64,000 bases of DNA from the NCBI GenBank assembly GCA_965243135.1, contig OZ251539.1, forward strand, positions 960,001 through 1,024,000, written 5' to 3'. Of the stretch, positions 431 to 18,266 are shown piece by piece. How positions within the stretch are numbered: position 1 is the first letter of the stretch; every line of letters begins with the position of its first letter. The notes below the pieces were generated by a model. That model was not told where the DNA came from and made no database searches. It saw only the letters and a program-made list of their open reading frames with translations. This DNA is from Alphaproteobacteria bacterium. GTDB taxonomy: Bacteria; Pseudomonadota; Alphaproteobacteria; MPNO01; UBA830. Made by a program: the position numbers and the translations under genes.

Positions 431-455
431 TCCCGGCCGCGGCGGACGGAGGCCT
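431..455. repeat. 25-bp direct repeat, copy 1
   Basis: tcccggccgcggcggacggaggcct; matches 1619-1643 at 24/25. Confidence 0.85.
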
Positions 456-498
456 TTCGTCAAATATAGTCGATTCCACGAGACGCTGCTTTCGGCGT

Positions 499-669
499 AT
501 GCAAGTCGGACTTCACCGGTTCATGCGGACAGCGTGGCTCCGAACGGCAGTCGCCGTGTCGGACGCACCCGGCGTCAGCTGGCCCACGAGCTGTGCGAGC
601 GCGAAGACTGGCGCAACGAGAAGGGCGAACTTTGCCTCGGCACGGCGGATCCTGCCGGAGCTCGCCGAG
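499..669 (+). pseudogene. Frameshifted N-terminal fragment of a DUF4338-type IS4 transposase
   Basis: Joined frames read MQVGLHRF...RRQLAHELCEREDWRNEKGELC..SARRILPELAER, resembling RGQLVDRVCAAFGFRDGRGRWQRVTCRKALTALE in the intact transposase at 13580. Confidence 0.55.
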
Positions 670-1334
670 CGCAGGTTCGGCAACTACTGGTTCCAGAGCG
701 GCACGCCGACCTTCCTGGTCGAGACGCTGACGCGCCGCGACCTGCCCACATGGACGGCATGACCGGCAGCGAGAGCCTGCTCTCGGCCTTCGACGTGGAC
801 AATGTCGAGGCGCTTCTGTTCCAGACCGGCTACCTCAGTGCGCCGGCGAGGAGGACGGGCGCTACCGGCTGGACTACCCGAACCTCGAGGTGCGCCAGAG
901 CCTGGGCGAGGTCCTGCTGGGAGAACTGCTCCCGGTCGAGGCCCGCAAGAAGACGGGGCGCCTGCGGCTGGGCGAACTGCTGGAGGCGAACGACTTCGAA
1001 CGCACCCTGTTCCGCGGCGTCTTCGCCCCGCACCAGTGGTACGCGACCAGCCCGGTCGCGAAGTACGAGGCCCACTACGCGAGCGTCCAGCTGCTTGGAG
1101 GGCTTCGAGCCGGTGGCCGAGGACAGCGGCAGCCGGGGGCGCGCCGACATGGCGATCCGCGCCGGCGGGGGCGTCTACCTGTTCGAGTTCAAGGTGGTGG
1201 AGCGCGGACGGGAGGGGACCGCGCAGTTGCGGGAGAAGGGATACGCGGACAAGTACCGCAATCTCGGACGTTCGGTCCACCTGGTGGAGTTCAGCCGCGA
1301 AGAGCGCAACGTCGTCGGGTTCGAGACCGCCTGA
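670..1334 (+). pseudogene. 3' fragment of AAA-ATPase/PD-(D/E)XK nuclease gene (copy A)
   Basis: Near-identical to 12175-12894 (FGNYWF...GRADMAIRAGGGVYLFEFK...) but with several frameshifting or in-frame 5-7-bp deletions. Confidence 0.9.
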
Positions 1335-1483
1335 AGCCGGACGAGTTCGACGTCCCGTTCGGACACGGCCGCCTCCGCGAAAGAACGCCGCCCGCGGTCC
1401 GGCCTGCGGCGGCCGCCGATTCGTCGCCTCGCGCGGCGCTCGACCGGAAAGCGCCTGAAAGGTCGCGGGAAGGCGTCCGCGGG

Positions 1484-1544
1484 GCCGGCTGCTTGTCGCG
1501 CGACGCAGCGCGAGACAGGCCTGACCTCAAGGCCTACGTTCTAC
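1484..1544. repeat. Partial copy of a dispersed palindromic repeat with an AGGCCT hairpin (REP-like)
   Basis: gccggctgcttgtcgcgcg...gacaggcctg shared with 11198-11309 and 16039-16157; AGGCCT-7nt-AGGCCT followed by CTAC (GTAG on the minus strand). Confidence 0.55.
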
Positions 1545-1618
1545 CAGGCGCCAAGGAACAACGATACGCTCAAGGACTCAACAACAATGGCGGGGGGTTG
1601 AAAGGTCGCTGGCCGCCC

Positions 1619-1659
1619 TCCCGGCCGCGGCGGACGAAGGCCTCGCCGGGACGGGAGGG
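1619..1659. repeat. 25-bp direct repeat, copy 2, plus right arm of a hairpin (probable terminator of the RiPP precursor gene)
   Basis: 1619-1643 repeats 431-455; 1645-1659 gccgggacgggaggg is the exact reverse complement of 423-437. Confidence 0.75.
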
Positions 1660-1671
1660 GCGGACGGCGCG

Positions 1672-2073
1672 CTACGCCCATGGCAAGGCGCCGCCCGAGT
1701 CCACGCTGCCGACGCAGCCTGCGGTGCTGAGCGAGCTCGCGGTCGAGGGAACGGTTCCGGCGCACGCCAGCGAGCCCGCGGTGCTCGCGGTCTTGCCGCC
1801 GCCGGAGACCACCATCAGCGCCTCGTCCTGGAGCATCTGGTTCGGGTCGGGAGGCATGGCCAGGTGGAAGATGTCGCGGGTGTTGAGGACGACCTTCACG
1901 TCCATACCCGCCGGAACGTCGTGCCCATGCTCCCGCAAAATGTCTTTCGGATGCTCCTCGACCTCGCGCAGCCGATCCTCGTCGGAGCGGCAGGCGTCGG
2001 CGAGGTCTTGGAAAGCGCGGGCGCGCTGAAGGAAGATGTCGTGGGCGCCTTCTTGGTGGATGTTATCTCGCAT
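1672..2073 (-). CDS. NHLP (nitrile-hydratase-like leader) RiPP precursor, proteusin/TOMM-like
   Basis: Leader ...HPKDILREHGHDVPAGMDVKVVLNTRDIFHLAMPPDPNQMLQDEALMVVSGG ends in a double-Gly; core GKTASTAGSLACAGTVPSTASSLSTAGCVGSVDSGGALPWA is S/T/C/G/A-rich; AGGAG RBS. Confidence 0.85.
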   Translation of the reverse strand: MRDNIHQEGAHDIFLQRARAFQDLADACRSDEDRLREVEEHPKDILREHGHDVPAGMDVKVVLNTRDIFHLAMPPDPNQMLQDEALMVVSGGGKTASTAGSLACAGTVPSTASSLSTAGCVGSVDSGGALPWA

Positions 2074-2447
2074 GATCGTCTCTCCTGCGATGTTCGGGTG
2101 AAGGTTCTGTCCAGCGGTTCGAGATACTGGAACCCAATCCCCGAGTCTTCAGCATCATCATCCACTCCGTAGCGGAGGGGGTAAACCCTAATTTCACGCC
2201 TCCCGAGCGAGGAGGCGAACCGGAGGCGCGGTCGTGGGGCGGCTTGGGGCGGAATCCGCGAAAACGGCGTTCTCGGCGTGGAAATTCGCGGTTTTCCGTA
2301 CCCGGGGCAAGGCCGCACCCGTAAAAATTGCCTGCGCTTCAGGACGTCAGGAACGACGCGGGAGTTTCGTCGGCGTTTTTTCGCGCCGGAACTCTTGGCG
2401 AAAGAGCGACTCGCCGCTATACCGCCATTTTTCCGGAGAACGTTGCC

Positions 2448-3629
2448 ATGGATGCAGACGCCCGTACGGCGAGCGGGCTTCGCCGCGCGATCGAGGAACT
2501 TCCCGAATCGCTTATCCGTCATGTAGCGGAACCCAACATGGATCGCGAGGGGTTGGTGCGCTTGTGGTTCGGCGAACCCGACGTTCCGACTCCCGAGTTC
2601 ATCAAGCGCGCCGCGGTGGCGGCTCTGGCCGACAACCGGGTCTTCTACGCCAACAACCGGGGCGTGCTCGCTCTTCGCGAGGCCATCGTCGAGTACGCGA
2701 CCCGGTTGCATGGGCGCGAGGTCGCCCTCGAGCGCATCACGGTCACCGGATCGGGCATGAACGCCATCATGATCGTCTCGGAGGCCTTGATGTCTCCGGG
2801 CGACAACATGGTTGCCGTCGGACCGGTCTGGCCCAACTGCAGGGAAACGGTCCGCATCATGGGCGCGGAACCTCGCCAGGTTTCGCTGCGGCTCGGCGCG
2901 GACGGACGCTGGCGTCTCGGCGTCGACGAACTCTTCGCCGCCTGCGACGAGCGCACTCGCGCCGTCTTCGTCAATTCGCCGGGCAACCCGACGGGATGGG
3001 TGATGTCGGCCGAGGAACAGCGGACGGTTCTCGACGAATGCCGGCGGCGCGGCATCTGGGTGGTCGCAGACGAGGTCTATATCCGGCTTGCCTACGAGCA
3101 GGAGCTCGGGCGCGCGCCTTCCTTCCTCGACGTCGCGGAGGAGGAAGATCGCGTGGTCGTGATCAATTCGTTTTCCAAATCATGGTCGATGACGGGCTGG
3201 CGGCTGGGTTGGCTCACGCATCCGGCCGCCGCGGGGGACGAATTCGCGAAGCTCATGGAATACAACATCGCCAACCCTACGACCTTCGTGCAATACGCCG
3301 GAATAACCGCGATACGCGACGGCGAGGACTTCGTCGCGGAGACGATCGCCCGCTACCGGCGCAATCGGGACATCGTGGTCCAGCGTCTCGGCTCCATGCG
3401 GCGCGTTCGGCTGTCGCGGCCCGAGGGCGCGATTTACGCGTTTTTCTCGGTCGACGGCATGACGGATTCGGTCGCCTTCGCGCAGCGGCTCATCGACGAG
3501 GCCGGCGTCGGCCTTGCGCCCGGCCGCGCCTTCGGCGAGGACGGAGAGGGCTGGATGCGCCTTTGCTTCGCCGCCGACGCGGCGACCGTCTCGGAGGCGA
3601 TGGACCGGCTGGAGTCGGCGCTGGATTGA
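2448..3629 (+). CDS. PLP-dependent aminotransferase class I/II
   Basis: GEPD, NSPGNPTG, ADEVY and SFSKSWSMTGWRLGW motifs. Confidence 0.92.
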   Translation: MDADARTASGLRRAIEELPESLIRHVAEPNMDREGLVRLWFGEPDVPTPEFIKRAAVAALADNRVFYANNRGVLALREAIVEYATRLHGREVALERITVTGSGMNAIMIVSEALMSPGDNMVAVGPVWPNCRETVRIMGAEPRQVSLRLGADGRWRLGVDELFAACDERTRAVFVNSPGNPTGWVMSAEEQRTVLDECRRRGIWVVADEVYIRLAYEQELGRAPSFLDVAEEEDRVVVINSFSKSWSMTGWRLGWLTHPAAAGDEFAKLMEYNIANPTTFVQYAGITAIRDGEDFVAETIARYRRNRDIVVQRLGSMRRVRLSRPEGAIYAFFSVDGMTDSVAFAQRLIDEAGVGLAPGRAFGEDGEGWMRLCFAADAATVSEAMDRLESALD

Positions 3630-3689
3630 GACGCCGCGCAATTTTACGAGGGGCGCGGGCGGCTATCCGGCGGATGGCCCGGAGACCGC

Positions 3690-4955
3690 TCAGGCGACTC
3701 CCGGCGCGAATTCCTCGTCGCCGCCCGGACGGCTCCGGGTCAGCAGCGCCGCGACGATCGCGAGATTGGCGGCATTCGCGGCGACGCCGATCAGAAACGG
3801 CAGAACGTAGTCGCCGGTCGCGTCGAACAGAGCCCCCGCGAACCAGCTTCCGAACCCCATGGACGCCGCGCCGAACAGAAACACCAATCCGGTGCGGCGG
3901 CCGGCCTCCATGGGCGGCATGTATTCGCGGATGAGGATGGCGTAGACCGGAAAGATGCCGCCGTAGCCGAGCCCGAAGCCGACGCCCACGATATAGAGCG
4001 CGTAAACCGTGTCGGCGAAGGTGAGCAGGCCGAGCGTTATCGCCTGGACGCCGGAAAAGAAGAACAACGCCCACAGCGCGCCGAATCGGTCCGCGAGGAG
4101 ACCGACCACGACCACGCGGCTCACGAAGGCGGCCATCAGGGTGACCGAAAGGATCTCCACCGCGTTCGTCAGAGCCAGGCCCTTGTCGGTCGCGTGCGAG
4201 ATGAGATGGGCGAGCGGCATGGCCATCGCGATGCAGCAGCCGAGGATGGCGACGCACAGGATGGTTTGCAATCTGGCGTGGCTGAACGGCATCCGGCTGC
4301 GGCGCGGACCCCGCCTCGGCTTGCTCCCGTCCTTTTCGAGGGCCTCGGCCTCGGCGAGCGTACCGGGCGGCGGCGGAGCGCGGACGAAGACGGCGGCCAG
4401 CGGCAGCATGACGCAAGCGGCGAAGATCCCGAAGCCCAGAAAGCCGTCGCGCCAGCCGACCCACGCGACGACATGGCCGAACACGGCGGGCCAGACGATG
4501 CCGGCAAGGCTCTGTCCGCTCGCGACGATGCCCACCACCATCCCGCGACGCCGCTCGTACCAGCGGGCGATGTTGGCGAGCATCGGCGCGTAGAGGCTGC
4601 CCTGGCCGAAGAAGCCGAAGAGAACGAGATAGATCGCGTAGAGTTGGACGGGAGTCTCGACGAAGACCGTCAGCACCGCGCCGGACGCGACCGAGACGGC
4701 GGCCGTCAAGGGCGGAACGACGGCGCCCAGGCGGTCGAGGGCGTATCCCATGACCATGCCGCCGCATCCGCCGCCGAGGAACTGGAGAGCGAAAGCGAGG
4801 GAGGGCACTTCGCGCGGCCAGCCGAATTCCGCCGCGAGATCCTTGAGCGTCACCGAGATCAGGAACAGGCTGCCGGAGGCGACGAAGATGAGCGTCGTGG
4901 ACGCGGCGAGCAGATAGAACCGGAATCTCAGGATGCCTCGGAGACGGTCGGCCAT
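3690..4955 (-). CDS. MFS transporter
   Basis: About 12 hydrophobic segments; GYALDRLG and GLLADRFG motif A copies. Confidence 0.9.
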   Translation of the reverse strand: MADRLRGILRFRFYLLAASTTLIFVASGSLFLISVTLKDLAAEFGWPREVPSLAFALQFLGGGCGGMVMGYALDRLGAVVPPLTAAVSVASGAVLTVFVETPVQLYAIYLVLFGFFGQGSLYAPMLANIARWYERRRGMVVGIVASGQSLAGIVWPAVFGHVVAWVGWRDGFLGFGIFAACVMLPLAAVFVRAPPPPGTLAEAEALEKDGSKPRRGPRRSRMPFSHARLQTILCVAILGCCIAMAMPLAHLISHATDKGLALTNAVEILSVTLMAAFVSRVVVVGLLADRFGALWALFFFSGVQAITLGLLTFADTVYALYIVGVGFGLGYGGIFPVYAILIREYMPPMEAGRRTGLVFLFGAASMGFGSWFAGALFDATGDYVLPFLIGVAANAANLAIVAALLTRSRPGGDEEFAPGVA

Positions 4956-4959
4956 CTCT

Positions 4960-5400
4960 CTACGCCGCGACGGGGGCGGTCGGTTCGAGGCTCGCGTATG
5001 CCCGCAGCAAGAGCCGGCGCAGCGTTTCGACCTCCGACCGGGAGAGGCCGGCGACGGCGCGGGCCTCCAGAGCGACCGCCTCGGGAATCAGTTTCTCGGT
5101 GGCGCGCTTCCCCTCGGGCGTGAGGCGAACGTTGACCGTGCGCGAATCGCCGTCGTCGCGGCTGCGAAGCGCCAGCCCCTTGGCATCCATGCGGCCGATC
5201 AGCCGGGACAGGGTCGACAGGTTGATGCTGGTGAGTTCCGAGAGCTCGCCCACCGGCAGGTCGCCGTGCCGGTGAAGGACGCTGAGCGCCCGCCACATCT
5301 GCACGTCGATGCCGGCTTCGGCGAGCGACGGGGTGAATTCGCTTACGAAGCGCTGGCCGAGCCGGTTGACGAGATAGGGGAGGTAGTTGTCGAGCTCCAT
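4960..5400 (-). CDS. MarR-family transcriptional regulator
   Basis: STLSRLIGRMDAKGL...DSRTVNVRLTPEG winged helix. Confidence 0.9.
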   Translation of the reverse strand: MELDNYLPYLVNRLGQRFVSEFTPSLAEAGIDVQMWRALSVLHRHGDLPVGELSELTSINLSTLSRLIGRMDAKGLALRSRDDGDSRTVNVRLTPEGKRATEKLIPEAVALEARAVAGLSRSEVETLRRLLLRAYASLEPTAPVAA

Positions 5401-5406
5401 GCGGCG

Positions 5407-6471
5407 TCAATCCGCCGCGGCGCGTTCGAACGCCGGCGCGACGCATTCCATGAACCGGTGCATCTGCTCCTTGACGAGCGCATGCGGCTTGTTGCCGACG
5501 TTGAAGTAGAGGATGACCTCCTCGATGCCGGCCGCTTCGACCTGCTTGAGCCTGTCCGCGATCTGCTGCGGACTGCCGATCAGGACGGAATTCGCCGACA
5601 GCTTGTCCTTCTCCATGTTGCGCAGGACCTCGTTGATCTTGAGGAAGTAATGCATCGTGGGCGGCATCTTCGCGGGGTCGTCGGGAAAGGCGCGCAGCAC
5701 GCAGTGCTTGAAATAGTCCATCATCGCCTGGCGTCCGGCGTCGTCCTCTTCCGGGGTTTCGGCGATATGAACGAAGTAGCTGCACATGGCGCGGCCGGGG
5801 GTTCCGCCGTTCTGGACGCAGGCTTCTCGGTACTTGTCCACGGCTTGTTCGATCCCGCCGTAGACCATCGTCGCGGCGAACGGGGCGTAGATCACGTTGA
5901 GCCCCCTGCGCGCCGCCATTTTCAGCGAGGTTTCGGAGAACGACGCGACGTAGAACGGTATCGGATTCTGCACGGGCTTCGGCGTGATCGACATGTCGTC
6001 GATGCGGTAGCACGCCCCGTGGTGCGACCAGAAGCCCGGCTCGGTCCAGGCCTTGAGCAGCACGTCGATGCCTTCCTCGAACATCTCGGCGGACTTCATG
6101 AAATCGGCGCCGAACGGCGCGTACTCGGCCCGGTCGTAGCCGCGTCCGGTCGCGAAATCGACGCGGCCGCCGGACAGGAGGTCGAGGGTCGCCCAGCACT
6201 CGGCGACGTGGATCGGGTGATGCAGCGGCAGCACGTTGACCGCCGGCGCGAAACGGATGTTCTTCGTTTCCGGTATGATGCTGGCGAGGAGGATGTCGGG
6301 GCGCGAATTCACTCCGAGGCGATCGAAGTGGTGCTCGCCGATCCAGGCCGAGTGATAGCCGAGCCGGTCGGCCAGGATCGCCTGCTCGCGGATTTCGAGG
6401 ACGAAGTCGCTCGCCGAGCGCGGGTTGTCCGGATAGTAGTTGTCGGAAAGGGTGAAGTAGCCGAATTCCAT
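5407..6471 (-). CDS. Luciferase-like (LLM) flavin-dependent monooxygenase
   Basis: MEFGYF, WIGEHHF, HPIHVAE..ATLDLLSGGRVDFATGRG motifs. Confidence 0.92.
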   Translation of the reverse strand: MEFGYFTLSDNYYPDNPRSASDFVLEIREQAILADRLGYHSAWIGEHHFDRLGVNSRPDILLASIIPETKNIRFAPAVNVLPLHHPIHVAECWATLDLLSGGRVDFATGRGYDRAEYAPFGADFMKSAEMFEEGIDVLLKAWTEPGFWSHHGACYRIDDMSITPKPVQNPIPFYVASFSETSLKMAARRGLNVIYAPFAATMVYGGIEQAVDKYREACVQNGGTPGRAMCSYFVHIAETPEEDDAGRQAMMDYFKHCVLRAFPDDPAKMPPTMHYFLKINEVLRNMEKDKLSANSVLIGSPQQIADRLKQVEAAGIEEVILYFNVGNKPHALVKEQMHRFMECVAPAFERAAAD

Positions 6472-6636
6472 GGCGCGGACTTCCTGCATTGGGGAGATGC
6501 GCCGGGAGGGTATCGCGCCCGCGCCTATATTTGCAAGTGCAAATTTCGCCGCGCCGGGGCCGGGAACGAAAGGCCGTTCCCCCGAACGCCGACAGCGGGT
6601 ATACTCGCGGCGGGCCCTGACGCATAGGAGGAGGAT

Positions 6637-7518
6637 ATGGGCGATCCCGTGTACCGGAACTACGACGCGGAGGCGCTCTGGGCGCAATACGATAACCGCG
6701 CCCAGATACCGGCGGAGACGTTCGACGCCATAAAGGCCGATCAGGCCGCCCGGTCGGCGGACTACCGCCGCACTGCGAGGCGCGCCTACCTAGATGTCGC
6801 CTACGATCGCCAGTGGCGGGAACGCCTGGACCTGTTCCTGCCCAGCAGCGGCAGGAGCTGGCCGCTGTTCGTCTTCATTCACGGCGGTTACTGGCAATGG
6901 AACAGGAAAGAAGGTTTCGAGTTCCTCGCCCGGGAACTCGTGGCCGCGGGCGCCGCTTTCGCCAGCGTCGAATACGCGTTGTGCCCGTCCGTGACGATGG
7001 AGGAATTGACCGATCAATGCCGCCGGGCGGCCGCTTATCTGTGGCGCGAGGCGGATTACTACGGTTACGATCGCGAGCGCTTCGTCGTGTCGGGCCATTC
7101 GGCTGGAGGGCATCTGGCGACGATGCTGCAGACCACCGTCTGGTTGAACGTCGCGGGAGATCTTCCCACTGGTTTCGTGACGGGGAGCTTGCCGATCAGC
7201 GGGATTTACGATCTCGAACCGATCCGGCTGACGCCGCTGAACGATGCGGTCCGCCTGGGGCAATCCGACGTTCCCGGCCTCAGCCCCATGTTCCTGAAAC
7301 CGACGTCGATGGGGCGGACCATCGTCGCCTACGGCGAAGCCGAATACGACGAGTTCCACCGCCAAGCGCGCGACCTCGCTTCCGCCTGGGCCGGACATGG
7401 AATGGAAACCAGCGTTCTGGAACTGCCGGGCCGCGATCACTTCACGGCGCTGAACGCGCTCGCCGAGCCCGACCACGAGTTGTTTCGGGCCGCGCTCGGG
7501 CTCCTGGGACTCGACTGA
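6637..7518 (+). CDS. Alpha/beta hydrolase, arylformamidase (kynurenine formamidase)-like
   Basis: FIHGGYW, GHSAGGHL nucleophile elbow, SGIYDLEP, DHF; AGGAGG RBS. Confidence 0.85.
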   Translation: MGDPVYRNYDAEALWAQYDNRAQIPAETFDAIKADQAARSADYRRTARRAYLDVAYDRQWRERLDLFLPSSGRSWPLFVFIHGGYWQWNRKEGFEFLARELVAAGAAFASVEYALCPSVTMEELTDQCRRAAAYLWREADYYGYDRERFVVSGHSAGGHLATMLQTTVWLNVAGDLPTGFVTGSLPISGIYDLEPIRLTPLNDAVRLGQSDVPGLSPMFLKPTSMGRTIVAYGEAEYDEFHRQARDLASAWAGHGMETSVLELPGRDHFTALNALAEPDHELFRAALGLLGLD

Positions 7519-7550
7519 ACGCCGACGGACCGTTCGGGAAATCCGGGTTC

Positions 7551-8402
7551 TCAGGCCTCGTTCACGATCGGGTTGGACAACGCGCCGATCCCGTCGAGTT
7601 CGACCTCGATCGTATCGCCTCCCTTCATGAACACCGGCGGCTTCCGGTAGTTGCCGACGCCGCCGGTGGTGCCGGTCGAGATGACGTCGCCCGGGTAGAG
7701 TTCCGTGACGGCGGTGAGGTAGGCGATGAGCTGATTGACGTCGAAAAGGAGATCGTCGGTCGTCGCGCGTTGCATTTCCTCGCCGTTGAGGCGCGTCGTC
7801 AACGTCATCTTGGTCGGATCGGGGATTTCGTCGGCGGTCACCATCCACGGTCCGAAAGCGCCCGAGCGGTAGAAGTTTTTCCCCGGCGCGAACTGGCTGG
7901 TGTGACGCTGGTAGTCGCGAACGGAGCCGTCGTTGTAGCAGGCGTATCCGGCGACGACCGAGAGCGCGTCCTCTTCCCTGACGTGGCGGCAGGTCTTGCC
8001 GATGACGACCGCCAGTTCCCCTTCGAAGTCGAACTTGTCGGAAACTCGCGGCTTGATCATCGGCTGGAGGTGGCCGACCTGGGAATTGGGGTAGCGCGTG
8101 AAGATCATCGGCCATTCGGGCGCCGGACGGTTGCCGCCCTCGAGCACGTGGCTGCGATAGTTGAGTCCGACGCACAGAATCTTGTCCGGGTTCGGAACGA
8201 CGGGCAGGAACTCCACGTCCTCGATGCGGTGATCGGGCGCCCTGTTCGCCGCGGCTTCGGCGATCTCGTCGAGGGCGTTCCGGGCGATGGCGTCGCGCAG
8301 CGTTTGCGCGCCGCCCGCCAGGGGCCGCGCGTCGACGATTCCCGCCTCGGTGACGACGCCGTAGGATTCCGTCCCGCCGACAGCGTAGCTGGTGATCCTC
8401 AT
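7551..8402 (-). CDS. Fumarylacetoacetate hydrolase family protein
   Basis: KILCVGLNY, DFEGELAVVIG, NDGSVRD, PGDVISTGT. Confidence 0.92.
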   Translation of the reverse strand: MRITSYAVGGTESYGVVTEAGIVDARPLAGGAQTLRDAIARNALDEIAEAAANRAPDHRIEDVEFLPVVPNPDKILCVGLNYRSHVLEGGNRPAPEWPMIFTRYPNSQVGHLQPMIKPRVSDKFDFEGELAVVIGKTCRHVREEDALSVVAGYACYNDGSVRDYQRHTSQFAPGKNFYRSGAFGPWMVTADEIPDPTKMTLTTRLNGEEMQRATTDDLLFDVNQLIAYLTAVTELYPGDVISTGTTGGVGNYRKPPVFMKGGDTIEVELDGIGALSNPIVNEA

Positions 8403-8720
8403 TCGATCCTCCGTTGCAATGCGCGCGCATACATAATGCCCGCCCGCATCGAGGGCAAACCGCCGCGCGTTCGGGGTCCGCGCCGGATGCGATTCGAAAA
8501 CCGGCGCCGGACGATCGAGGCCGGGCGGCCGGCTTGCGGCTGAAGCAGCGAAGACGGCGGGCGGGGCGCGGAAAATTCGCGGTTTTCCGCGCCCGAATCG
8601 GGGCGAAATTCCTTGCCCCTGAAAACCGTTTGCATTTCGAGACGTTGCGAACGGCGCGCGCGGCTCTTGACAGGGACCAGGGAGATGAATTAGGATGCCA
8701 GACTCCTATAACTGAAACGG

Positions 8721-10187: not shown

Positions 10188-10629
10188 AACCGCGGCAGCG
10201 CGCCTCCCCGGTTTCGGCGCTCCGTAGCGTCAGGCGCGGTCTCGGCGGCGGGCAGGGCGGCCGCTCCGCTCGCCCGGGGATCGCAGCAGCCCGACGGTTT
10301 CGCAGCGGCAGGATCGAGCGTTTCTCGGCCGTCGGTTCGTTCGTCGGGTCCGGTGCGGCGGTTCGGTGCGCCAAGCGGCTTCGCCCGGCGGAAAGGTGCC
10401 GTCGCGAGCGTCGCCCGGCTCTTCGTGGACGGCGGCCGGGGTGCCCGCCTGACGGGACCGACGGAATGCCAGCTGCCTTCGCGACGGAGATTGCCGACCG
10501 CGCGCTTCGGCGTCGACAGGAGGAGACTCGAAGAACGGCGCGGGAAGATTGGTTTGGTTTTGAGCGTTGTCCGCCAACGTGGTCTATAGGTTTCCGGTTC
10601 GTCTCGACAACCGGGGTTTCGGGGTTCCC

Positions 10630-11142
10630 ATGCAATTTCTGAAACGCGCCGCGGTTTTCGCAGCGATGCCTTTCTTTCTTGCCGTGGCGCCGGTGGGCGC
10701 GAACGCGGACAACGAATGCGATTCCCCCGTGAACGGGGAAACTTCATGCCCGAACCGAGGTTCTTCGGTCCGGTCGGTGATCATCATCAATGGCGAGGTG
10801 ATCGGCGGCAATTCCGAGGGGGGCGCGGCCGTGAAGCTGACCGGCGGCGGCAGCGTCATCGTCGGTCCGAAGGGCCGTTTGAACGCCGACGGGGCGCCCT
10901 TCGCGATCAGGGGCGACGGCGCCGCGACCCAAGTGACCGTGCTCCAGGATCCCGATCTCGCCGACGATGGGCGCCTCACGAAGCAGGGCGTCGACGATGC
11001 GCTGGAAAGATTGGGCGCGGTCGGCGGCGTCGACGCCGTCGCCGTTCGGGCTGGCGAGGCGGGTTCGACCGGCGCCGACTACGAGAGGCGCGGGACGGTC
11101 GGCGATGACGGCAGCGTCAGCGTCGACGCCACGGGTCTTTAG
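10630..11142 (+). pseudogene. Secreted autotransporter-passenger-like fragment lacking a barrel
   Basis: Signal peptide MQFLKRAAVFAA..ANA and Gly-rich GEVIGG..AAVKLTGGGSVIVGPKGRL passenger-like strands; ends just before a repeat element. Confidence 0.5.
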
Positions 11143-11197
11143 GAAGGCCCTCCGCAGGCGACTTCCAGGTCGGGCGTCGAACGCGCTCGTCTCAGCG

Positions 11198-11309
11198 GGG
11201 CAGGATTTCTGCGGAGCGACAGGTTCGCTCGCCCCCGCGCTTTTCCCCGCCGTACCGCTGCGAAAACTGCCGGCTGCTTGCCGCGCCACAGGGGACGCGG
11301 ACAGGCCTG
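11198..11309. repeat. About 115-bp dispersed repeat, copy upstream of AAA copy B
   Basis: gggcaggattt..ggagcgacag.ttcgctcgc..ccggctgcttg..gacaggcctg also at 16039-16157. Confidence 0.75.
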
Positions 11310-11323
11310 CCGCCGCCGACTCC

Positions 11324-11352
11324 TTGACGGCTCCGGCGCGGCGGCCTACTCT
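11324..11352 (+). promoter_or_regulatory. Sigma70-type promoter, probably giving a leaderless mRNA
   Basis: TTGACG-17nt-TACTCT ending 6 nt before ATG 11359; no SD sequence. Confidence 0.6.
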
Positions 11353-11358
11353 CTTCCG

Positions 11359-12894
11359 ATGGCGAAACGCATGCTTCCGATCGGCATGACCTCCCTCCGG
11401 AAAATCCGGGGGATGGACTGCTACTACGTCGACAAGACGGACCATGTCCGCCGCCTTGTCGAGGGTGGTCAATATTATTTTCTGTCGCGTCCGCGCCGGT
11501 TCGGCAAGACCCTCCTGGTGGACACGCTGCAGAAGCTGTTCGAGGGAAGCGAGGAGTTGTTCCGGGGCCTCGCCGTGCACGGCAAGTGGGACTGGTCGAC
11601 GCGCCATCCTGTCGTGCGGATCAGCTTCGGCGGGGGCAATTTCGACTCTCCGGACCACATTCGGAGAAACGTGGAGGACCAGTTGGAGGAAACGGAGCGG
11701 CTGGCCGGCCTCGAACCGGGCCCCGCCGAGGCGTCGGTTCGTTTCCGGCGCCTGATAAGGACGCTGCACGAGCGCACCGGGCAGCGGACGGTCGTTCTGG
11801 TGGACGAGTACGACAAGCCAATTCTGGACGCGCTCGGCGACCGGGAACTGGCGCTGGCCAACCGCGATTTCCTGCGCGGCTTCTACGCGATGATCAAGGA
11901 GTGCGACGAGCAGCTCCGCTTCGTTTTCCTGACGGGGGTGAGCAAGTTCTCGAAAGCGGGCCTGTTCTCGGGCCTGAACAACCTGAACGACATCACGCTG
12001 GACGAGCGCTACGGCGCTATTTGCGGTTGTACGGACGCGGAACTGGACGCGGTCTTCGCCCCGGAACTGGAGGGCCTGGACCGGGACGAAATCCGGCACT
12101 GGTACAACGGCTACAACTGGCTCGGACCGGAGAAGGTCTACAATCCGTTCGGCCTCCTGCTGTTGTTCGACAAACGCAAGTTCGGCAACTACTGGTTCCA
12201 TAGCGGCACGCCGACCTTCCTGGTCGAGACGCTGGCGCGCCGCGACCTGCCCACTCCCGACCTGGACGGCATGACCGGCAGCGAGAGCCTGCTCTCGACC
12301 TTCGACGTGGACAATATCTCGGTCGAGGCGCTTCTGTTCCAGACCGGCTACCTCACCATCGCGGGCGAGGAGGACGGGCGCTACCGGCTGGACTACCCGA
12401 ACCTCGAAGTGCGCCAGAGCCTGGGCGAGGCCCTGCTGGAAGAACTGCTCCCGGTCGAGGCCCGCAAGAAGACGGGGCGCCTGCGGCTAGGCGAATTGCT
12501 GGAAGCGAACGACTTCGAACGCATCGGGACCTTGTTCCGCGGCGTCTTCGCCGCCATCCCGCACCAGTGGTACATGAACAGCCCGGTCGCGAAGTACGAG
12601 GCCCACTACGCGAGCGTCATCCACAGCTGCTTCCTGATGGAGGGCCTCGAGCCGGTCGCGGAGGACAGCGGCAGCCGGGGGCGCGCCGACATGGCGGTCC
12701 GCGCCGGCGGGCGCGTCTACCTGTTCGAGTTCAAGGTGGTGGAGCGCGGGCGGGAGGGAACCGCGCTCGCGCAGTTGCGGGAGAAGGGCTACGCGGACAA
12801 GTACCGCCGTCTCGGTCGTTCGGTCCACCTGATCGGGGTGGAGTTCAGTCGCGAAGAGCGCAACGTCGTCGGGTTCGATTGCGAGACCGCCTGA
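11359..12894 (+). CDS. AAA-ATPase-like plus C-terminal PD-(D/E)XK nuclease protein (intact copy B)
   Basis: LPIG, YYVDKT, SRPRRFGKT Walker A, LVDEYDKP Walker B, FLTGVSKFSK, YNGY, GRADM..YLFEFK nuclease motif. Confidence 0.92.
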   Translation: MAKRMLPIGMTSLRKIRGMDCYYVDKTDHVRRLVEGGQYYFLSRPRRFGKTLLVDTLQKLFEGSEELFRGLAVHGKWDWSTRHPVVRISFGGGNFDSPDHIRRNVEDQLEETERLAGLEPGPAEASVRFRRLIRTLHERTGQRTVVLVDEYDKPILDALGDRELALANRDFLRGFYAMIKECDEQLRFVFLTGVSKFSKAGLFSGLNNLNDITLDERYGAICGCTDAELDAVFAPELEGLDRDEIRHWYNGYNWLGPEKVYNPFGLLLLFDKRKFGNYWFHSGTPTFLVETLARRDLPTPDLDGMTGSESLLSTFDVDNISVEALLFQTGYLTIAGEEDGRYRLDYPNLEVRQSLGEALLEELLPVEARKKTGRLRLGELLEANDFERIGTLFRGVFAAIPHQWYMNSPVAKYEAHYASVIHSCFLMEGLEPVAEDSGSRGRADMAVRAGGRVYLFEFKVVERGREGTALAQLREKGYADKYRRLGRSVHLIGVEFSREERNVVGFDCETA

Positions 12895-13348
12895 AGCCGG
12901 ACGAGGTCCCGTTCGGACACGGCCGCCTCCGCGAAAGAACGCCGTCCGCGAGGCGGGTCCGGCCTGCGCTCCGTCGAAGGCGGCAGCTGGCTCGTCGCCT
13001 CGTGCGCTTGCGGCTTGACGGGACGCCCCGCCGAGGAGGCCGCCTCGGGGCCGGCGGCGTCTCCCTGCAGGCGCTCGCGGCCGGGCGCGCGCCCCTTCAA
13101 GTTTGAAGCGCAACGCGCGTGGTGGCTGACCGACCGTTTTCATGTTGCGGAGAGGTCAGGCGGATGAGTTCAAAAACGGAGGCCAACGCCTGCCATCACC
13201 GTTTCCGGTTTCGCTTTTGCGAGCCGCTTCGGTTGATGGCTTCGAACCAGCCCATGGAGGTTCGGCGGCGGAAGTCCGCTCGCTCGACCGGACGACGCTC
13301 TCGTTCGACGGAGCCGTTGCCTGACGTTCAGGCGTTTCGCCGCTTGCG

Positions 13349-13438
13349 GCGCATGTCGTCGCGCGCGCGGGTCTCCGGGCGGCACTGATGTCGATATTCC
13401 AGACATGGAGCGCATGTCGTCGCGCGCACGGGTCTCCG
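13349..13438. repeat. Two 29-bp direct repeats, 61-bp period
   Basis: gcgcatgtcgtcgcgcgc(g/a)cgggtctccg at 13349 and 13410. Confidence 0.8.
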
Positions 13439-13527
13439 TCGCCGAACCAACTGCAGGTATGGCGGCGAGGCGTGCCGCGACGATCGTCGTTGGATGCGCG
13501 CGGCTTTCCCTGGCGAGGGCGCTTGCC

Positions 13528-15882
13528 CTGCCTGTCGCCCACAAATCGGGTGTTGACACGGTGAGTCTGATTCGGTACCGTGCGGGACATGGAGGTCCAG
13601 AATCAAGTCATCCGCACTCTTCGGAGCGATCTTGTCCGGCTGCAAGGGCTGACCGGGGACGGGGGCAGTCGCGGCCAACTGGTCGACCGGGTCTGCGCGG
13701 CGTTCGGGTTTCGGGACGGGCGCGGTCGCTGGCAGCGCGTGACTTGCCGGAAAGCGCTGACCGCGCTGGAAGCGGAAGGACACATTTCGCTTCCGCCGCG
13801 CCGTACCGCTCGCTGTGGCCAGCGACGCGTCGCCGATCCGGTGCCGCCGGCGCGCGACGTGCCGGACGCGGTCTGCGCGGTCGAGGATTTGGAGCTGGTC
13901 CTGGTGACGGATGCGCGGCAGCGCGCGATCTGGGACGGGTTGATGACGCACGAGCATCCGTGCGGCGCAGGGCCTTTCGTGGGCTGCCAGGTACGTTACC
14001 TGGTGGGGTCGGCGCATGGCTGGCTGGGAGCCGTGGGGTTTGCCTCTTCCGCCCGTTGGCTGGCCTGCCGCGACCGCTGGATTGGCTGGAACGACGACAA
14101 GCGGCGCGCTTGTTTGCACCGGGTCGCGTGCCTGTCGCGTTTTCTGATCCGTCCCGGCATCGAGTGCCGGAATCTCGCCTCGCACGTCCTGGGGCAAACA
14201 GTATGCATGGCGGGAGACGATTTCGAGGTGCGCTACGGCTATCGGCCCTATTTGCTGGAGACCTTCGTCGACGAGGAGAAGCATACGGGGGCGATCTTCC
14301 GTTCCGCGAACTGGCAGCATGTGGGGAAGACCAGTGGTCGCCGAAGGGGTGCGGCGAAGGCACCGAAAGCGGTGTACATGTACGAACTGGACGCAGGATG
14401 GCGGGAACGTCTGCACATTCCCGAACCGCGTCTTGCGCCTCTGAAGGTCGGGGCCGGTCTCGATCGGGAGAGCTGGGCGGAACAGGAGTTCAGCGGCGCA
14501 CCGCTGGGGGATGCACGCCTGAGCGCACGCCTGGTGACTTGCGCCCGGCATCAGGCGGAAGCGCCGATGCGGGCGTTCACGGGCGCAGCGAGGGGAGATC
14601 AAGCCTTGATCAAGGCTTATTACCGTTTCATCGACAAGCCGGACAACGAGGCGGTGACGGTGGAGAACATCATGCAACCGCACCGTCGCCGGACGCTGCA
14701 GCGGATGCAGGGAGAGAAGACGGTGCTGTGCGTGCAGGATGGCAGCACGCTGAACTTCGCGAAGCGCGGCAAGACCGAAGGGTTGGGAATCATCGGCAGG
14801 AACCAGACCGCCGCCGCCGCCCGGGGCTTGCACTTGCATGCGACTCTTGCGGTGAACGCCGACGGGTTGCCGCTGGGAGTTCTGCGGGCGGCGTTCGACG
14901 CCCCACAGCCGGGCGCGGAGAAGGACAAGCCTCGCGAGGAGAAGAAGTCGTACCGGTGGATCGAGGGTCTTCGCGACAGCGCCGCGGCCGCTGCGGCACT
15001 CGATGGCGTGCAGGTCGTCGGCGTCATGGATCGGGAAGCAGACTTCGTCGACCTGTTCGTCGAGCGCCGCGAGCGGACGCCGGGAGTGGAACTCCTGGTG
15101 CGGGCGAAGACGAACCGCGTTCTTGGAAAGGACGACGCCGACAAGCTGTTCGACAAGGTGCGGAAAAGTCCAGCGCAAGGCAAGCTGGTCATCGAGGTCA
15201 AGCGTCTGAGCGCACGAATCAAGGCCAGCAAGCAGGCCGCAAAGGCAATGCGACCGGCCCGCCAGGCTACGGTCAGGCTGCGCTACCTCAAGGTCGAGCT
15301 GCCGGCGAAGGGCAAGGCGCCTGTCGAGATGACGATCGTGCACGTCCGCGAGGAAAACCCGCCGGCGGACGACGAACGGCTGGAATGGTTCCTGCTGACG
15401 ACGCTGCCGGTCGAGAGTGCCGTGGACGCCGAACGCATCCTGATGTGGTACGGCCTGCGCTGGCGCATCGAAGATTACTTTCGCGTCTTGAAGTCCGGCT
15501 GCAAGATCGAGGAACTCGAGAACCGGACGGCCGAGCGCCTTCAGCGCGCCGCAGCCATCAATATGGTCGTCGCCTGGCGGATTCACCTGATGGCCCGCCT
15601 CGGACGGGAACTGCCCGATCTGCCGCCCGAGATCCTGTTCTCGGACGTCGAACTCCAGGTGCTGGCGCTGTTCGCCAAATCGCGACGCAAGGACGCGCCG
15701 AAAAATCTTGGAGAGGCTGTCTTCCTGGTCGCCGCCCTCGGCGGCTACATCAAGCGCAAGCGGGACCCGCCAGGCGCGGAAGTAATGTGGAACGGCTACC
15801 TCCAACTCGCCGCAATGGCTTTTCACCAGGAACTTCGGGATGAATATTGTTAGTCTAGCATCGATTTGTGGGGGACAGGCAG
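13528..15882 (+). mobile_element. Complete IS4-family (IS50/Tn5-like) insertion sequence, 2355 bp
   Basis: TIRs ctgcctgtcgcccacaaatcg (13528-13548) and cgatttgtgggggacaggcag (15862-15882), 20/21 match; CGCTTGCC duplicated at 13520-13527 and 15883-15890. Confidence 0.93.
13580..15853 (+). CDS. IS4-family DDE transposase with N-terminal DUF4338 (DruA-like) domain
   Basis: LGDARLSARL, VLCVQDGS, VMDREAD and Y..RWRIEDYFRVLKSGC (YREK) motifs; N-terminal RDRWIGW..SRFLIRP..NLAS..LLETFVD. Confidence 0.9.
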   Translation: MRDMEVQNQVIRTLRSDLVRLQGLTGDGGSRGQLVDRVCAAFGFRDGRGRWQRVTCRKALTALEAEGHISLPPRRTARCGQRRVADPVPPARDVPDAVCAVEDLELVLVTDARQRAIWDGLMTHEHPCGAGPFVGCQVRYLVGSAHGWLGAVGFASSARWLACRDRWIGWNDDKRRACLHRVACLSRFLIRPGIECRNLASHVLGQTVCMAGDDFEVRYGYRPYLLETFVDEEKHTGAIFRSANWQHVGKTSGRRRGAAKAPKAVYMYELDAGWRERLHIPEPRLAPLKVGAGLDRESWAEQEFSGAPLGDARLSARLVTCARHQAEAPMRAFTGAARGDQALIKAYYRFIDKPDNEAVTVENIMQPHRRRTLQRMQGEKTVLCVQDGSTLNFAKRGKTEGLGIIGRNQTAAAARGLHLHATLAVNADGLPLGVLRAAFDAPQPGAEKDKPREEKKSYRWIEGLRDSAAAAAALDGVQVVGVMDREADFVDLFVERRERTPGVELLVRAKTNRVLGKDDADKLFDKVRKSPAQGKLVIEVKRLSARIKASKQAAKAMRPARQATVRLRYLKVELPAKGKAPVEMTIVHVREENPPADDERLEWFLLTTLPVESAVDAERILMWYGLRWRIEDYFRVLKSGCKIEELENRTAERLQRAAAINMVVAWRIHLMARLGRELPDLPPEILFSDVELQVLALFAKSRRKDAPKNLGEAVFLVAALGGYIKRKRDPPGAEVMWNGYLQLAAMAFHQELRDEYC

Positions 15883-16038
15883 CGCTTGCCTTCGCGTTGC
15901 GTCGGCTCTGGTTTCCGCGGCGAGGGCGTCGACCTTGCTGGCGGTGCCGGCCGTCGGCGTTCGCTTCCGCCTGACGGCCTCCTGGCCGCGCGTTGAGCGT
16001 GTCGGACGTGCTTGCAACCATGGTCGCTTACTGCGGGC

Positions 16039-16157
16039 GGGCAGGATTTCCCCGGAGCGACAGATTCGCTCGCCTCCGCGCTTTCCCCCGCCGGCCGCCT
16101 GTACCGCCGCGGAAGCTGCCGGCTGCTTGTCACGCGATACAGAGCGGGACAGGCCTG
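16039..16157. repeat. About 115-bp dispersed repeat, copy downstream of the IS
   Basis: Homologous to 11198-11309 in the same orientation. Confidence 0.75.
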
Positions 16158-16408
16158 GTCGCGAAGTGCCGCGGCGACGTTCTCTCGCCGGCCCGTGGCG
16201 CGTCCCTTTCGCCGGGCTTTCGCCCGGCGCGTCCGTTCGCCGCAGGGGCGGCGTCCGGCCCCGAGTTCCCTGCGGCCTCCTCGGAGGGGCTCCCGTCGAA
16301 CCGCTGGCGCGCAAGGCGACGAACCGGCTGCTGCCGCAGGCCGAATCCGCGTCGCGGGCGGCGTTCTTTCGCGGAGGCGGCCGTGTCCGAACGGGACCTC
16401 GTCCGGCT

Positions 16409-17890
16409 TCAGGCGGCCTCGCAGCCGACGACGTTGCGCTCCTCGCGGCTGAACTCCACCAGGTGGACCGAACGCCCGAGACGGCGGTACTTGTCCGCGT
16501 AGCCCTTCTCCCGCAACTGCGCGATCGCGATCCCCTCCCGTCCGCGCTCCACCACCTTGAGCTCGAACAGGTAGACGCGCCCGTCGGCGCGGACCGCCAT
16601 GTCGGCGCGCCCCCGGCTGCCGCTGTCCTCCGCGACCGGCTCGAAGCCCTTCAAGCAGCTGGACGCTCGCGTAGTGGGCCGCGTACTTCGCGACGGGGCT
16701 GTTCAGGTACCACTGGTGCGGGGCGAAGACGCCGCGGAACAGGGTCCCGAGGCGCTCGAAGTCGTTCGCCTCCAGCAGTTCGCCTAGCCGCAGGCGCGCC
16801 GTCTTCTTGCGCGCCTCGACCGGGAGCAGCTCTCCCAGCAGGGCCTCGCCCAGGCTCCGGCGCACCTCGAGGTTCGGGTAGTCCAGTCGGTAGCGCCCGT
16901 CCTCCTCGCCGGTGATGGTGAGGTAGCCGGTCTGGAACAGAAGCGCCTCGACATTGTCCACGTCGAAGGCCGAGAGCAGGCTCTCGCTGCCGATCATGCC
17001 GTCCAGGTCGGGCGTGGGCAGGTCGCGGCGCGTCAGCGTCTCGACCAGGAAGGTCGGCGTGCCGCTATGGAACCAGTAGTTGCCGAACTTGCGTTTGTCG
17101 AACAGCAGCAGGAGGCCGAACGGGTTGTAGACCTTCTCCGGTCCGAGCCAGTTGTAGCCGTTGTAGAAGCGCCGGACCTTCTCCCGGTCCAGGCCCTCCA
17201 GTTCCGGGGCGAAGACCGCGTCCAGCTCCGCTTCGGTGTAACCGCAGATGGCGCCGTAGCGCTCGTCCAGCGTGATGTCGTTCAGGTTGTTCAGGCCCGA
17301 GAACAGGCCCGATAACTTGCTCACCCCCGTCAGGAAAACGAAACGGAGCTGCTCGTCGCAATCCTTGATCGCCCCGTACAGGTCGCGCAGAAAGTCCCGG
17401 TTGGCCCGCGCCAGTTCCCGGTCGCCGAGCGCGGACCGGCTTGTCGTACTCGTCCACCAGCACGACCGCCCGCTGCCCGGTGCGCTCGTGCAGCGTCAGG
17501 CGCCGGAAACGGATCGCCGCCCCGGCGGGGCCCGGTTCGAGGCCGGCCTGCATCTCCGTCTTTTCCAGCTGCGCTTCCACGGTTTCCCGAACGCGGTCCG
17601 GGACGACGAAATTGCGCCCGCCGAAGCTGAGCCGCACGACGGCGCGCCGACCAGTCCCACTTGCCGTGCACGGCGAGGCCCCGGAACAACTCCTCGCTTC
17701 CCTCGAACAGCCTCTGCAGCGTGTCCACCAACAGGGTCTTGCCGAACCGGCGCGGACGCGACAGGAAATAGTAATCGCCCCCTTCGACGAGGCGGCGCAA
17801 ATGGTCCGTCTTGTCGACGTAGTAGCAGTCCCTCGTCCGGATTTTCCAGAGGGAGGTCATGCCGACCGGAAGCATGCGTTTCGTCAGAGA
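16409..17890 (-). pseudogene. Full-length degenerate AAA-ATPase/PD-(D/E)XK gene (copy C), inverted relative to copy B
   Basis: Collinear with 11359-12894 across four ORF fragments; start codon and part of the promoter spacer deleted; many 5-6-bp deletions. Confidence 0.92.
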
Positions 17891-18266
17891 GTAGGCCGCC
17901 GCGCCCGTCAAGAAGCCGACGGTCGCGAGGCAGGGCGATGGTAGCGGCGTGATTCCACATTTTTTTCGCTGCGCTACTTTCTTCTCTGACTTTCGCTAAC
18001 CGATTCGGTTACTCGCTGGTCATGGCTGAGATTCCCGCGCCGGACTGGGAAGATTTTTCGCTCGAAGGAGTGGTTACGCAACGAAATGGCGCAAAAAACC
18101 GCCGTGGCCAAGCCGCAAGCATGTCCGGTTCCCCGGTTGGGACCAGCGCGGCGCGACGCACAGAAAATAGCGTGGGATCGCCCTGCTTCGGCGAACCGCG
18201 GCGGTTCCGCTAGGCCCGAAAACCCACTAGACTTCCGCCGCGTTCGACCGTGCGCGGGAGGAAGAG

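Follow-up and report, generated by a model that had tools for sequence, protein, structure and literature searches.

ATC-anchored 5-6-bp deletions recur in pseudogenes and repeated DNA of an alphaproteobacterial chromosome

Deletions in two decayed copies of a multicopy gene

The chromosome of an alphaproteobacterium (contig OZ251539.1, hereafter genome G000) harbors pseudogenes that have lost blocks of 5 or 6 bp, most of which begin or end with the dinucleotide AT. Our analysis started from a window of 64,000 nucleotides, which comprises bases 960,001-1,024,000 of this single-contig 6.10-Mb genome (~67% G+C, 98.8% complete). Public sequencing runs containing this stretch are labelled sponge metagenome or bear coded organism names, and the closest named relatives of one housekeeping protein are uncultured Alphaproteobacteria. 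The window contains three copies of one gene. Copy B (11278-12894, plus strand) is an intact frame of 538 codons that matches the families AAA-ATPase_like (PF09820, 205.4 bits) and PDDEXK_9 (PF08011, 59 bits) above the Pfam cut-offs, and it served as the undeleted reference; its start codon is likely the ATG at 11359. Copy A (670-1334, plus strand) is a pseudogene reduced to a 3′ fragment, and copy C (16409-17915, minus strand) is a near full-length pseudogene of the same family.

The three copies were aligned with MAFFT, and the positions of deletions are given in the coordinates of B. Over 715 aligned bases, copy A shows 45 mismatches, nine deletions of 5-6 bp, one of 7 bp and one of 1 bp, and copy C shows 137 mismatches and twelve 5-6-bp deletions over 1569 aligned bases. 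AT can be placed at an end of eight of the nine 5-6-bp deletions in A, six of which have ATC/GAT at an end. Correspondingly, eight of the twelve deletions in C are AT-anchored, or nine if the block lost at 12873 is read as TTCGAT with one mismatch. Together the two copies represent 16 distinct 5-6-bp events, five of which are common to both: ATCTCG at 12316 (junction at 803/804 in A and 16952/16953 in C), CGCCAT at 12552 (1026/1027, where GCCATC is an equivalent placement, and 16722/16723), the 5-bp block ATCCA at 12619 (1087/1088 and 16661/16662), CCTGAT at 12632 (1095/1096 and 16653/16654) and ATCGGG at 12831 (1282/1283, equivalently GATCGG, and 16460/16461).

Among the losses confined to A are ATCGGG at 12523 (junction 1003/1004), where C reads CTC instead of ATC and has no deletion, ATTGCG at 12876-12881 (1321/1322), and two blocks that are not AT-anchored on the sequence of B, namely 6 bp around 12762 (1219/1220), where C reads GATCGCGATCGC, and 7 bp at 12253 (747/748). 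Copy C alone lacks TCCGAT at 11354 (17886/17887), by which the start-codon region is removed, the 5-bp block ATCCT at 11606 (17640/17641), a site that is deleted in five family copies of the genome, and ATAAGG or GATAAG at 11754 (17497/17498). Three further deletions in C lack an AT anchor: GCTCC in the leader (5 bp at 11330, junction 17905/17906), TGGAC or CTGGA (5 bp at 11824, 17433/17434) and CTCGAA at 11949 (17313/17314), the latter in a region where 17 family copies show a 6-bp loss at one of three registers. The loss at 12873 in C (16424/16425) is GTTCGA as aligned. When it is read as TTCGAT, the segment TTCG-AT-TGCG (12873-12881) has undergone two different deletions that share one AT and extend in opposite directions, TTCGAT being removed from C and ATTGCG from A.

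The segment 12181-12894 of B contains nine ATC/GAT trinucleotide positions, corresponding to eight sites when GATC is counted once. All eight are lost in A, seven of them by a 5-6-bp deletion. At the remaining site (12358), A instead carries what is left of a group II intron's 5′ end (838-844, plus strand); this remnant reads GTGCGCC in place of CCATCGCG in B. Nearly every item of the original prediction, which had been derived from a hand alignment of A and C to B, was reproduced by our alignment. This applies to ApT at one end of most deletions, to the disappearance of all eight ATC/GAT sites from A, and to the undeleted CTC in C.

Copy B has about 102 near full-length relatives in the genome, most of them with intact frames, and the family covers 211 kb. 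It thereby accounts for ~3.5% of the chromosome. Many fragments of the gene occur as well, and the copies are often arranged in tandem runs. We aligned the 61 copies that are at least 87% identical to B and scored deletions against the consensus. This yielded 12 deletions of 1 bp, 8 of 2 bp, 7 of 3 bp, none of 4 bp, 21 of 5 bp, 77 of 6 bp and 4 of 7 bp. Several sites recur, such as ATCCA in five copies, GATCGG in eight, TTCGAT in six and ATCCG in five.

At the place corresponding to position 1078 of B (~12355 in the window), at least six other copies of the family carry a group II intron-like insert. It measures ~800-870 bp without an open reading frame (ORF), apart from one copy of 3.5 kb, and it starts with GTGCG and ends with CTAC in all six copies examined (1,934,091-1,934,959; 3,618,446-3,619,308; 1,150,703-1,151,572; 4,119,186-4,120,048; 2,889,577-2,890,375 and 2,665,260-2,668,832 of the genome). 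Two RVT_1 matches (2,665,984-2,666,223 and 2,667,885-2,668,076) lie inside the 3.5-kb copy. The consensus of group II introns has a 5′ GUGYG end and a 3′ AY end. Judged by these ends and the reverse-transcriptase ORF, the insert is predicted to be a group II intron.

Elsewhere in the window, an ORF at 8721-10187 matches the autotransporter beta-domain with 111 bits (PF03797). Another multicopy family, with at least 10 copies of 70-84% identity, is represented by the gene located between B and C (13328-16021), of which the frame examined has no Pfam match.

Genome-wide spectrum and sequence context of the deletions

The chromosome is unusually repetitive for a bacterium: in a self-comparison, paralogous matches of at least 80% identity span 1.32 Mb, i.e. 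21.6% of the genome. We scored gaps in all repeats with matches that measure 300 bp or more and are at least 85% identical, and considered a gap as private when one copy showed it against at least 60% of three or more partners. The private deletions comprise 843 events of 1 bp, 216 of 2 bp, 132 of 3 bp, 59 of 4 bp, 242 of 5 bp, 222 of 6 bp, 25 of 7 bp and 3 of 8 bp. Thus, 464 deletions of 5-6 bp stand against the 59 and 25 of the adjoining lengths. Apparent insertions were likewise observed (571, 130, 77, 27, 83, 56 and 9 for lengths of 1 to 7 bp). However, none of the 139 apparent insertions of 5-6 bp is a tandem duplication and 85 of them are AT-ended; they therefore represent deletions common to most partners, whose polarity was misread. 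As 5-bp events are as common as 6-bp events, the pattern is not the product of a selection filter.

AT at the ends was scored with equivalent placements allowed, and the null was taken from 20,000 random windows per length in the same repeats. AT stands at a block end in 143 of 242 events of 5 bp (null 7.7%) and in 138 of 222 events of 6 bp (null 8.7%), or in 60.6% of the pooled events compared to 8.2% of the 40,000 random windows. Of the 16 dinucleotides AT alone is enriched (7.4-fold), followed by TA with 1.9-fold. Microhomology at the deletion junctions is not enriched.

The cleanest set consists of repeat pairs with at most 0.5% mismatches, in which the partner directly supplies the ancestral sequence. 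Its unique events again peak at 5 and 6 bp (39 of 1 bp, 13 of 2 bp, 4 of 3 bp, 1 of 4 bp, 50 of 5 bp, 34 of 6 bp, 5 of 7 bp and 3 of 9 bp). AT-anchored are 38 of the 50 events of 5 bp and 29 of the 34 events of 6 bp (67/84), and an ATC/GAT anchor is present in 32 and 22 of them, respectively (54/84). Likewise, two of five 7-bp events and all three 9-bp events are anchored at ATC/GAT. Since the anchor is kept across events of 5, 6, 7 and 9 bp, only one edge of the deletion varies, the other being fixed. Relative to AT sites that escaped deletion, position 3 is enriched in C and depleted in G, the last deleted base is seldom C and the first retained base is seldom T. The base before the deletion (Y) and the last deleted base (R) are unlike. 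In addition, 55 of 161 ATC events lie within GATC.

No further motif was detected within 30 bp on either side of the deletions, and a distant recognition site of the type IIS kind was rejected on this ground. Slipped-strand mispairing was rejected because tandem-like events are rare, amounting to three of 50 at 5 bp and one of 34 at 6 bp in the near-identical pairs (4/84) and to 11 of 183 among the events without AT. In like manner, the lack of tandem duplications among the 139 apparent insertions argues against target-site duplications or transposon footprints.

The deletions are not confined to the family of B. As many as 382 of the 464 events lie outside of it, in ORFs that unite an IS66 transposase with a DruA-like domain, in a helicase-like gene of 1553 codons and in other families. 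Long frames with IS66-family transposase and DruA (Druantia) matches are found at 4,531,667-4,534,195, 3,599,909-3,602,494 and 2,837,721-2,839,583. They are multicopy and heavily hit by 5-6-bp deletions; as stop-to-stop frames they may join two genes.

We next compared the deletions with point mutations. The 192 near-identical repeat pairs, with 354,595 aligned bp, contain 160 mismatches, 106 gaps of 5 bp and 60 gaps of 6 bp, all of these counts being pairwise and not independent. In the youngest repeats, 5-6-bp deletions are thus about as frequent as point mutations. This is illustrated by a 1.63-kb insertion sequence, the six copies of which differ by zero to one real substitution, yet show 0, 2, 2, 12, 17 and 18 gaps. 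Among the blocks lost are ATCGCCGTT, ATCGAT, ATCGCG, ATCTC, ATCGA and ATGCA as well as ATCGACA, CGGCAT, CTGAT and ATCCAG. One copy has seven deletions in common with two others, yet it is the only one to keep ATCCAG, and CTGAT is lacking both in the copy with the fewest deletions and in the two with the most. This non-tree-like sharing indicates either repeated identical events or conversion between copies. The element itself generates duplications of ~7-8 bp without an AT motif. Two of its copies (5,407,677-5,409,306 and 5,424,277-5,425,909) are inverted and have exchanged their flanking repeats, which is what an inversion of the intervening 15 kb by recombination would produce. A poly-G tract near its left end varies from ~12 to 18 G between otherwise identical copies, for instance in the 5,759,300 region.

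The density of events along the chromosome ranges from 0.08 to 2.0 per kb of repeat (~25-fold). The segment at 4.5-5.75 Mb contrasts with those at 0.25-0.5 and 2.75-3.0 Mb, and the density is lowest around the GC-skew minimum. Both strands are used in proportion to the available sites. A replication-strand bias (125 versus 144 events) was not supported, nor were strand-coherent bursts (chi-square p = 0.41, with seven clusters only). The odds ratio of AT declines from 1.31 in unique DNA to 1.00 in repeats and further to 0.77 in copy B, 0.55 in C and 0.43 in A, and across 50-kb windows it is correlated with repeat content at r = -0.77. AT depletion parallels decay.

The window was also compared with other data. 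For this comparison we used contigs of four public runs from four studies against positions 1-18500 of the window, and considered the best 12 of 19 indel rows. Among these, no insertion of 5-6 letters was found at A or C, a result that neither proves nor refutes the junctions of the two copies. Moreover, ATCCGG at 7541-7546 is present in the window and omitted in one contig of run X4 (depth 18.5/18.5), and ATCGAG at 15191-15196 is omitted in one contig of run X1 (depth 32.1/32.1). The two runs belong to different studies, and neither locus has a paralogue at 85% identity or more. The ATC-anchored 6-bp signature hence also occurs as strain variation in non-repeated DNA, which supports but does not prove the process. 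The original prediction of a sequence-specific, recurrent, deletion-biased process at ATC/GAT that does not rely on slippage is borne out genome-wide by the 5-6-bp peak and by the excess of AT ends over the null. Its framing as a decay of these pseudogenes proved too narrow, given the events in other families and the two in non-repeated DNA.

Same-genus matches to the genome are only ~65-70% identical, leaving no close genome for a whole-genome alignment. We therefore inspected repeats within related genomes. In G004, a member of the same genus with ~20 copies of the family, gaps at 90% identity or more number 392, 66, 10, 9, 5 and 0 for lengths of 1 to 6 bp, i.e. there is no 5-6-bp peak. In G002, likewise of the same genus, four copies at four loci show 49 gaps of 1 bp, 5 of 2 bp, 2 of 3 bp, 2 of 5 bp and 9 of 6 bp. 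Its five 5-6-bp indel sites are not AT-anchored save one tandem case, and for this reason G002 is not counted as a second example. The CATCC site (11606), which C and four further copies of the genome studied here have lost, is nevertheless missing from the three aligned copies of G002.

Origin of the deletions

The deletions cleanly remove 5 or 6 bp, rarely 7 or 9 bp. One edge lies immediately 5′ of the A in 5′-ATC, less often in ATT or ATA and rarely in ATG, and the other edge lies 5-6 nucleotides downstream, after a purine and before a base other than T. The fixed left and variable right edge, the use of the strands according to site availability and the clean junctions suggest that the event starts on one strand at AT(C), and the same three features would speak against slippage and a symmetric double-strand cut alike. 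The event would begin when one strand is nicked at its AT(C) step or acquires a blocking lesion there; this beginning is deduced from the one fixed edge and from the failure to find canonical end-joining genes. Then, a tract of 5-6 nucleotides of that strand would be lost and the strand resealed without resynthesis, which is the variant we favor, or else a polymerase would skip the tract. The next round of replication would fix the change. Selection would purge such events from working genes, so that they would pile up in dead insertion sequences and pseudogenes. On balance, we consider it somewhat probable that a real, lineage-specific process at the DNA level removes 5-6 bp at ATC and begins on one strand.

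The gene content of the genome narrows the choice of enzymes. Ku (PF02735; five candidates scored, with Bacillus subtilis detected as control), the ATP-dependent ligase domain (PF01068; detected in six of 14 control genomes), type IB topoisomerase (PF01028; detected in the Deinococcus control) and the Piwi domain of Argonaute (with positive controls) gave no match in G000. Loss of RNase HII is rejected as a cause, the gene being present in all four genomes, and NucS yielded weak partial matches only. Phosphorothioation does not correlate with the signature: G000 has a partial dndC, the signature-free G004 has a full one, and in G002 the gene was not found. The partial dndC match (391,524-392,492) covers model positions 10-338 of 447 only, and the gene may be truncated. 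It lies inside the chromosome segment of highest deletion density (250-500 kb).

The original prediction invoked a staggered nick or cut at a site that contains ATC or bears a modification, followed by overhang loss and end joining. We took this as a double-strand cut by an endonuclease that leaves overhangs of 5-6 nucleotides. The narrow size of 5-6 bp would fit a fixed stagger, and the clean junctions without microhomology and the restriction to deletions also speak for such a cut. However, the end-joining step is unsupported because neither Ku nor the ATP-dependent ligase domain was found in this 98.8% complete single-contig genome, in spite of positive controls. Moreover, the strong motif resides on one edge only, and fill-in of 5′ overhangs would give duplications, of which 0/139 were seen. 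We consequently regard such a cut as quite improbable. Only a little less improbable is a polymerase that skips an adduct or cross-link at ApT, caused for example by an aldehyde or a natural-product genotoxin in the sponge; it would halt at the AT and resume 5-6 nucleotides further on. The palindromic ApT anchor could then be used in either direction, and one edge would be fixed while the other varies between 5, 6, 7 or 9 bp. Formaldehyde cross-links adenines at 5′-d(AT). In a yeast single-stranded DNA system, acetaldehyde raised deletions of at least 5 bp without microhomology, but according to the same passages formaldehyde gave no excess of indels (PMC9635668), for which reason formaldehyde itself was discarded as the cause. 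Furthermore, a simple ApT cross-link predicts neither the preference for C nor the avoidance of G after AT, the unlike bases before the deletion (Y) and at its end (R) offer no homology for realignment, and the event density varies 25-fold along the chromosome. An RNA route, by which group II intron reverse transcriptases return transcripts of multicopy elements to DNA after short stretches have been lost from them, would agree with six reverse-transcriptase matches in G000 and 19 in G002 as opposed to none in G003 or G004, with the missing 5-6-bp peak in G004 and with the intron copies inside the affected gene family. Nevertheless, within a single gene both strands carry anchors, in numbers that follow the available sites, non-repeated DNA is hit as well, and the phyletic pattern, which is based on three related genomes, is one that any mobile-element gene would show. 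This route has very little to recommend it.

An artefact of sequencing or assembly, by which hexamers present in the cells are dropped from the consensus, had to be considered since we rely on the consensus of a single assembly, and many gaps combined with zero substitutions look unnatural. In addition, 5-6 nucleotides are close to the sensing length of some nanopores. However, copies with identical local sequence retain the hexamers, two loci 60 kb apart have 17 deletions in common, and the deletions nest in a partly tree-like way. The decayed copies also show truncation and an intron remnant, and the best 12 of 19 indel rows mentioned above restore no 5-6-letter block at A or C. As contigs of two further runs, each from a different study, show 6-bp deletions that begin at ATC, we consider an artefact of this assembly unlikely and assign it a very low probability. 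Finally, a few old indels, in-frame or frameshifting, might have been spread by duplication or gene conversion among paralogues without any special process. Many deletions are indeed shared between copies, and conversion could give the non-tree-like sharing in the insertion-sequence family. In contrast, 464 deletions are private to single copies, a separate cause is needed for the size peak and the ATC anchor, events of 5 bp and of 6 bp are equally common, and one AT has suffered two different deletions (12873-12881). As a full explanation, spreading of old indels is contradicted and seems exceedingly improbable, though duplication or conversion likely contributes to the sharing of deletions.

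For the favored one-strand process at ATC, we found one concrete candidate for the trigger. A DarT-like ORF of 206 aa (3,076,482-3,077,102) matches PF14487 with 50.1 bits (cut-off 22.5) at model positions 85-200 of 201, and the PADLOC model of DarT with 27.6 bits. It overlaps the start of an ORF with an ADP_ribosyl_GH domain (PF03747, 97.9 bits), the locus extending over 3,076,482-3,078,596, and the ORF adjoining the DarT-like gene has no match to the PADLOC model of DarG, the antitoxin with a macro or NADAR domain. G002 encodes a canonical DarT/DarG pair (DarG, 452.8 bits), and no DarT-like or DarG match was obtained in G003, G004 and the 14 control genomes. Going by domain content, the DarT-like protein and the ADP-ribosylglycohydrolase may constitute a new toxin-antitoxin pairing. 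The bacterial excision nuclease incises DNA at the fourth or fifth bond on the 3′ side of a lesion. If the T of ATC were the lesion, this incision would lie precisely behind deleted base 5 or 6. The 5′ edge of the deletion is not matched by the canonical excision cut. As described in passages of PMC13368585, DarT2 modifies the third base of 5′-TYTN-3′ in single-stranded DNA with a bias against G at the fourth base, the adduct blocks a polymerase, and in E. coli the lesion drives homologous recombination. The phyletic pattern of the DarT-like gene rests on three to four related genomes and is shared by the reverse transcriptases and probably by any mobile-element gene. That the divergent DarT-like enzyme and its ADP-ribosylglycohydrolase trigger the deletions is a doubtful proposition, even though no other concrete candidate emerged. 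Unlikely as well, though less so, is a dedicated enzyme system of this bacterium, or perhaps of the genus, that disables repeated and mobile DNA by serial 5-6-bp excisions at ATC. If it existed, such a system would account for insertion-sequence copies that combine no more than one substitution with up to 18 gaps, the majority being deletions of 5-7 bp.

Several observations weigh against a one-strand process at ATC or against its proposed trigger. To our knowledge, no bacterial pathway explains the sealing of a 5-6-nucleotide gap without resynthesis. Approximately 20-40% of the events have no AT at an end. The evidence on the junctions in A and C beyond the genome itself is limited to assembled contigs of public runs. 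The numbers of 5-6-bp deletions and private substitutions per 1.5-kb window are uncorrelated (r = 0.04), which may mean that the process is episodic or targeted and not uniform. Although G002 encodes a canonical DarTG pair, its 5-6-bp sites lack the AT anchor save the one tandem case. Besides, the motif TYTN published for DarT2 is not ATC (passages of PMC13368585), and a case of DarT damage giving rise to 5-6-bp deletions was not found in the passages of the literature consulted.

Relation to known mutational processes

Full-text searches of the literature, which covered listings and selected passages, retrieved no description of ATC-anchored 5-6-bp deletions in bacteria, in line with the original prediction, whose author knew of none. 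Provided that raw reads confirm the junctions, the deletions would reflect a bacterial mutational process of a new kind. Its length would be fixed, its anchor would comprise three bases, and in neutral DNA it would be as frequent as all point mutations together. Such a process would be a new force in bacterial genome evolution that shortens non-functional DNA and enriches it in GC, inactivates insertion sequences and paralogues within very short times and places a load on every ATC in coding DNA. It would also imply an undiscovered activity, be it a lesion, a nickase or an excision-resealing enzyme, which creates clean, templateless deletions of predictable size without end joining and would be of interest to DNA-repair research and genome engineering. 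Other genomes can be tested for the signature by a 5-6-bp peak in paralogue alignments.

The erosion of bacterial pseudogenes in general likewise proceeds by small deletions in non-functional DNA, and Ku/LigD are often absent. In the passages of PMC6054270 consulted, the size distribution of deletions obeys a power law in which lengths of 3, 6, 9 and 12 bp are overrepresented, microhomology is present at 171 of 396 deletions, and canonical Ku/LigD is absent in six of eight genomes. In contrast to these data, deletions of 5 bp are here about as numerous as those of 6 bp, both outnumber those of 3 and 4 bp, microhomology is missing, the ATC anchor is fixed and the rate is comparable to that of all substitutions. 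Bacterial non-homologous end joining by Ku/LigD and alternative end joining can also leave deletions of a few bp at breaks. However, they give broad sizes and microhomology or templated additions, and neither Ku nor the ligase was found in G000.

A closer parallel in size is provided by eukaryotic topoisomerase 1-dependent deletions (signature ID4), which remove 2-5 bp in short tandem repeats. In their formation, one strand is cleaved at two neighboring positions and then religated; end joining is not involved. The deletions described here are likewise short and of defined length, but they measure 5-6 bp, lie at ATC outside of short tandem repeats and occur in a genome without a type IB topoisomerase match. 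ADP-ribosylation by DarT/DarG resembles our case in that, according to passages of PMC13368585 (see also the abstract of PMC7003065), a T within a four-nucleotide motif receives a bulky base adduct, with a bias against G at the next base; the adduct blocks polymerases and is handled by excision repair and recombination (PMC13368585). Unlike the present deletions of 5-6 bp at ATC, the motif reported there is TYTN and the outcome in bacteria is recombination (PMC13368585). Moreover, the protein of G000 matches half of the DarT model and is paired with a different hydrolase family.

A further comparison concerns repeated and mobile DNA. Repeat-induced point mutation (RIP) of fungi introduces C-to-T transitions and needs duplication. 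As in RIP, repeated or mobile DNA carries many context-specific mutations in single copies, beyond ordinary divergence; here, in contrast, the changes consist of deletions, at least two of which affect non-repeated DNA. A RIP-like restriction to repeats would be compatible with the AT odds of 1.00 in repeats versus 1.31 in unique DNA, but unique DNA is under selection. If a dedicated system were at work, it would be a prokaryotic counterpart of RIP that acts by deletion instead of base change.

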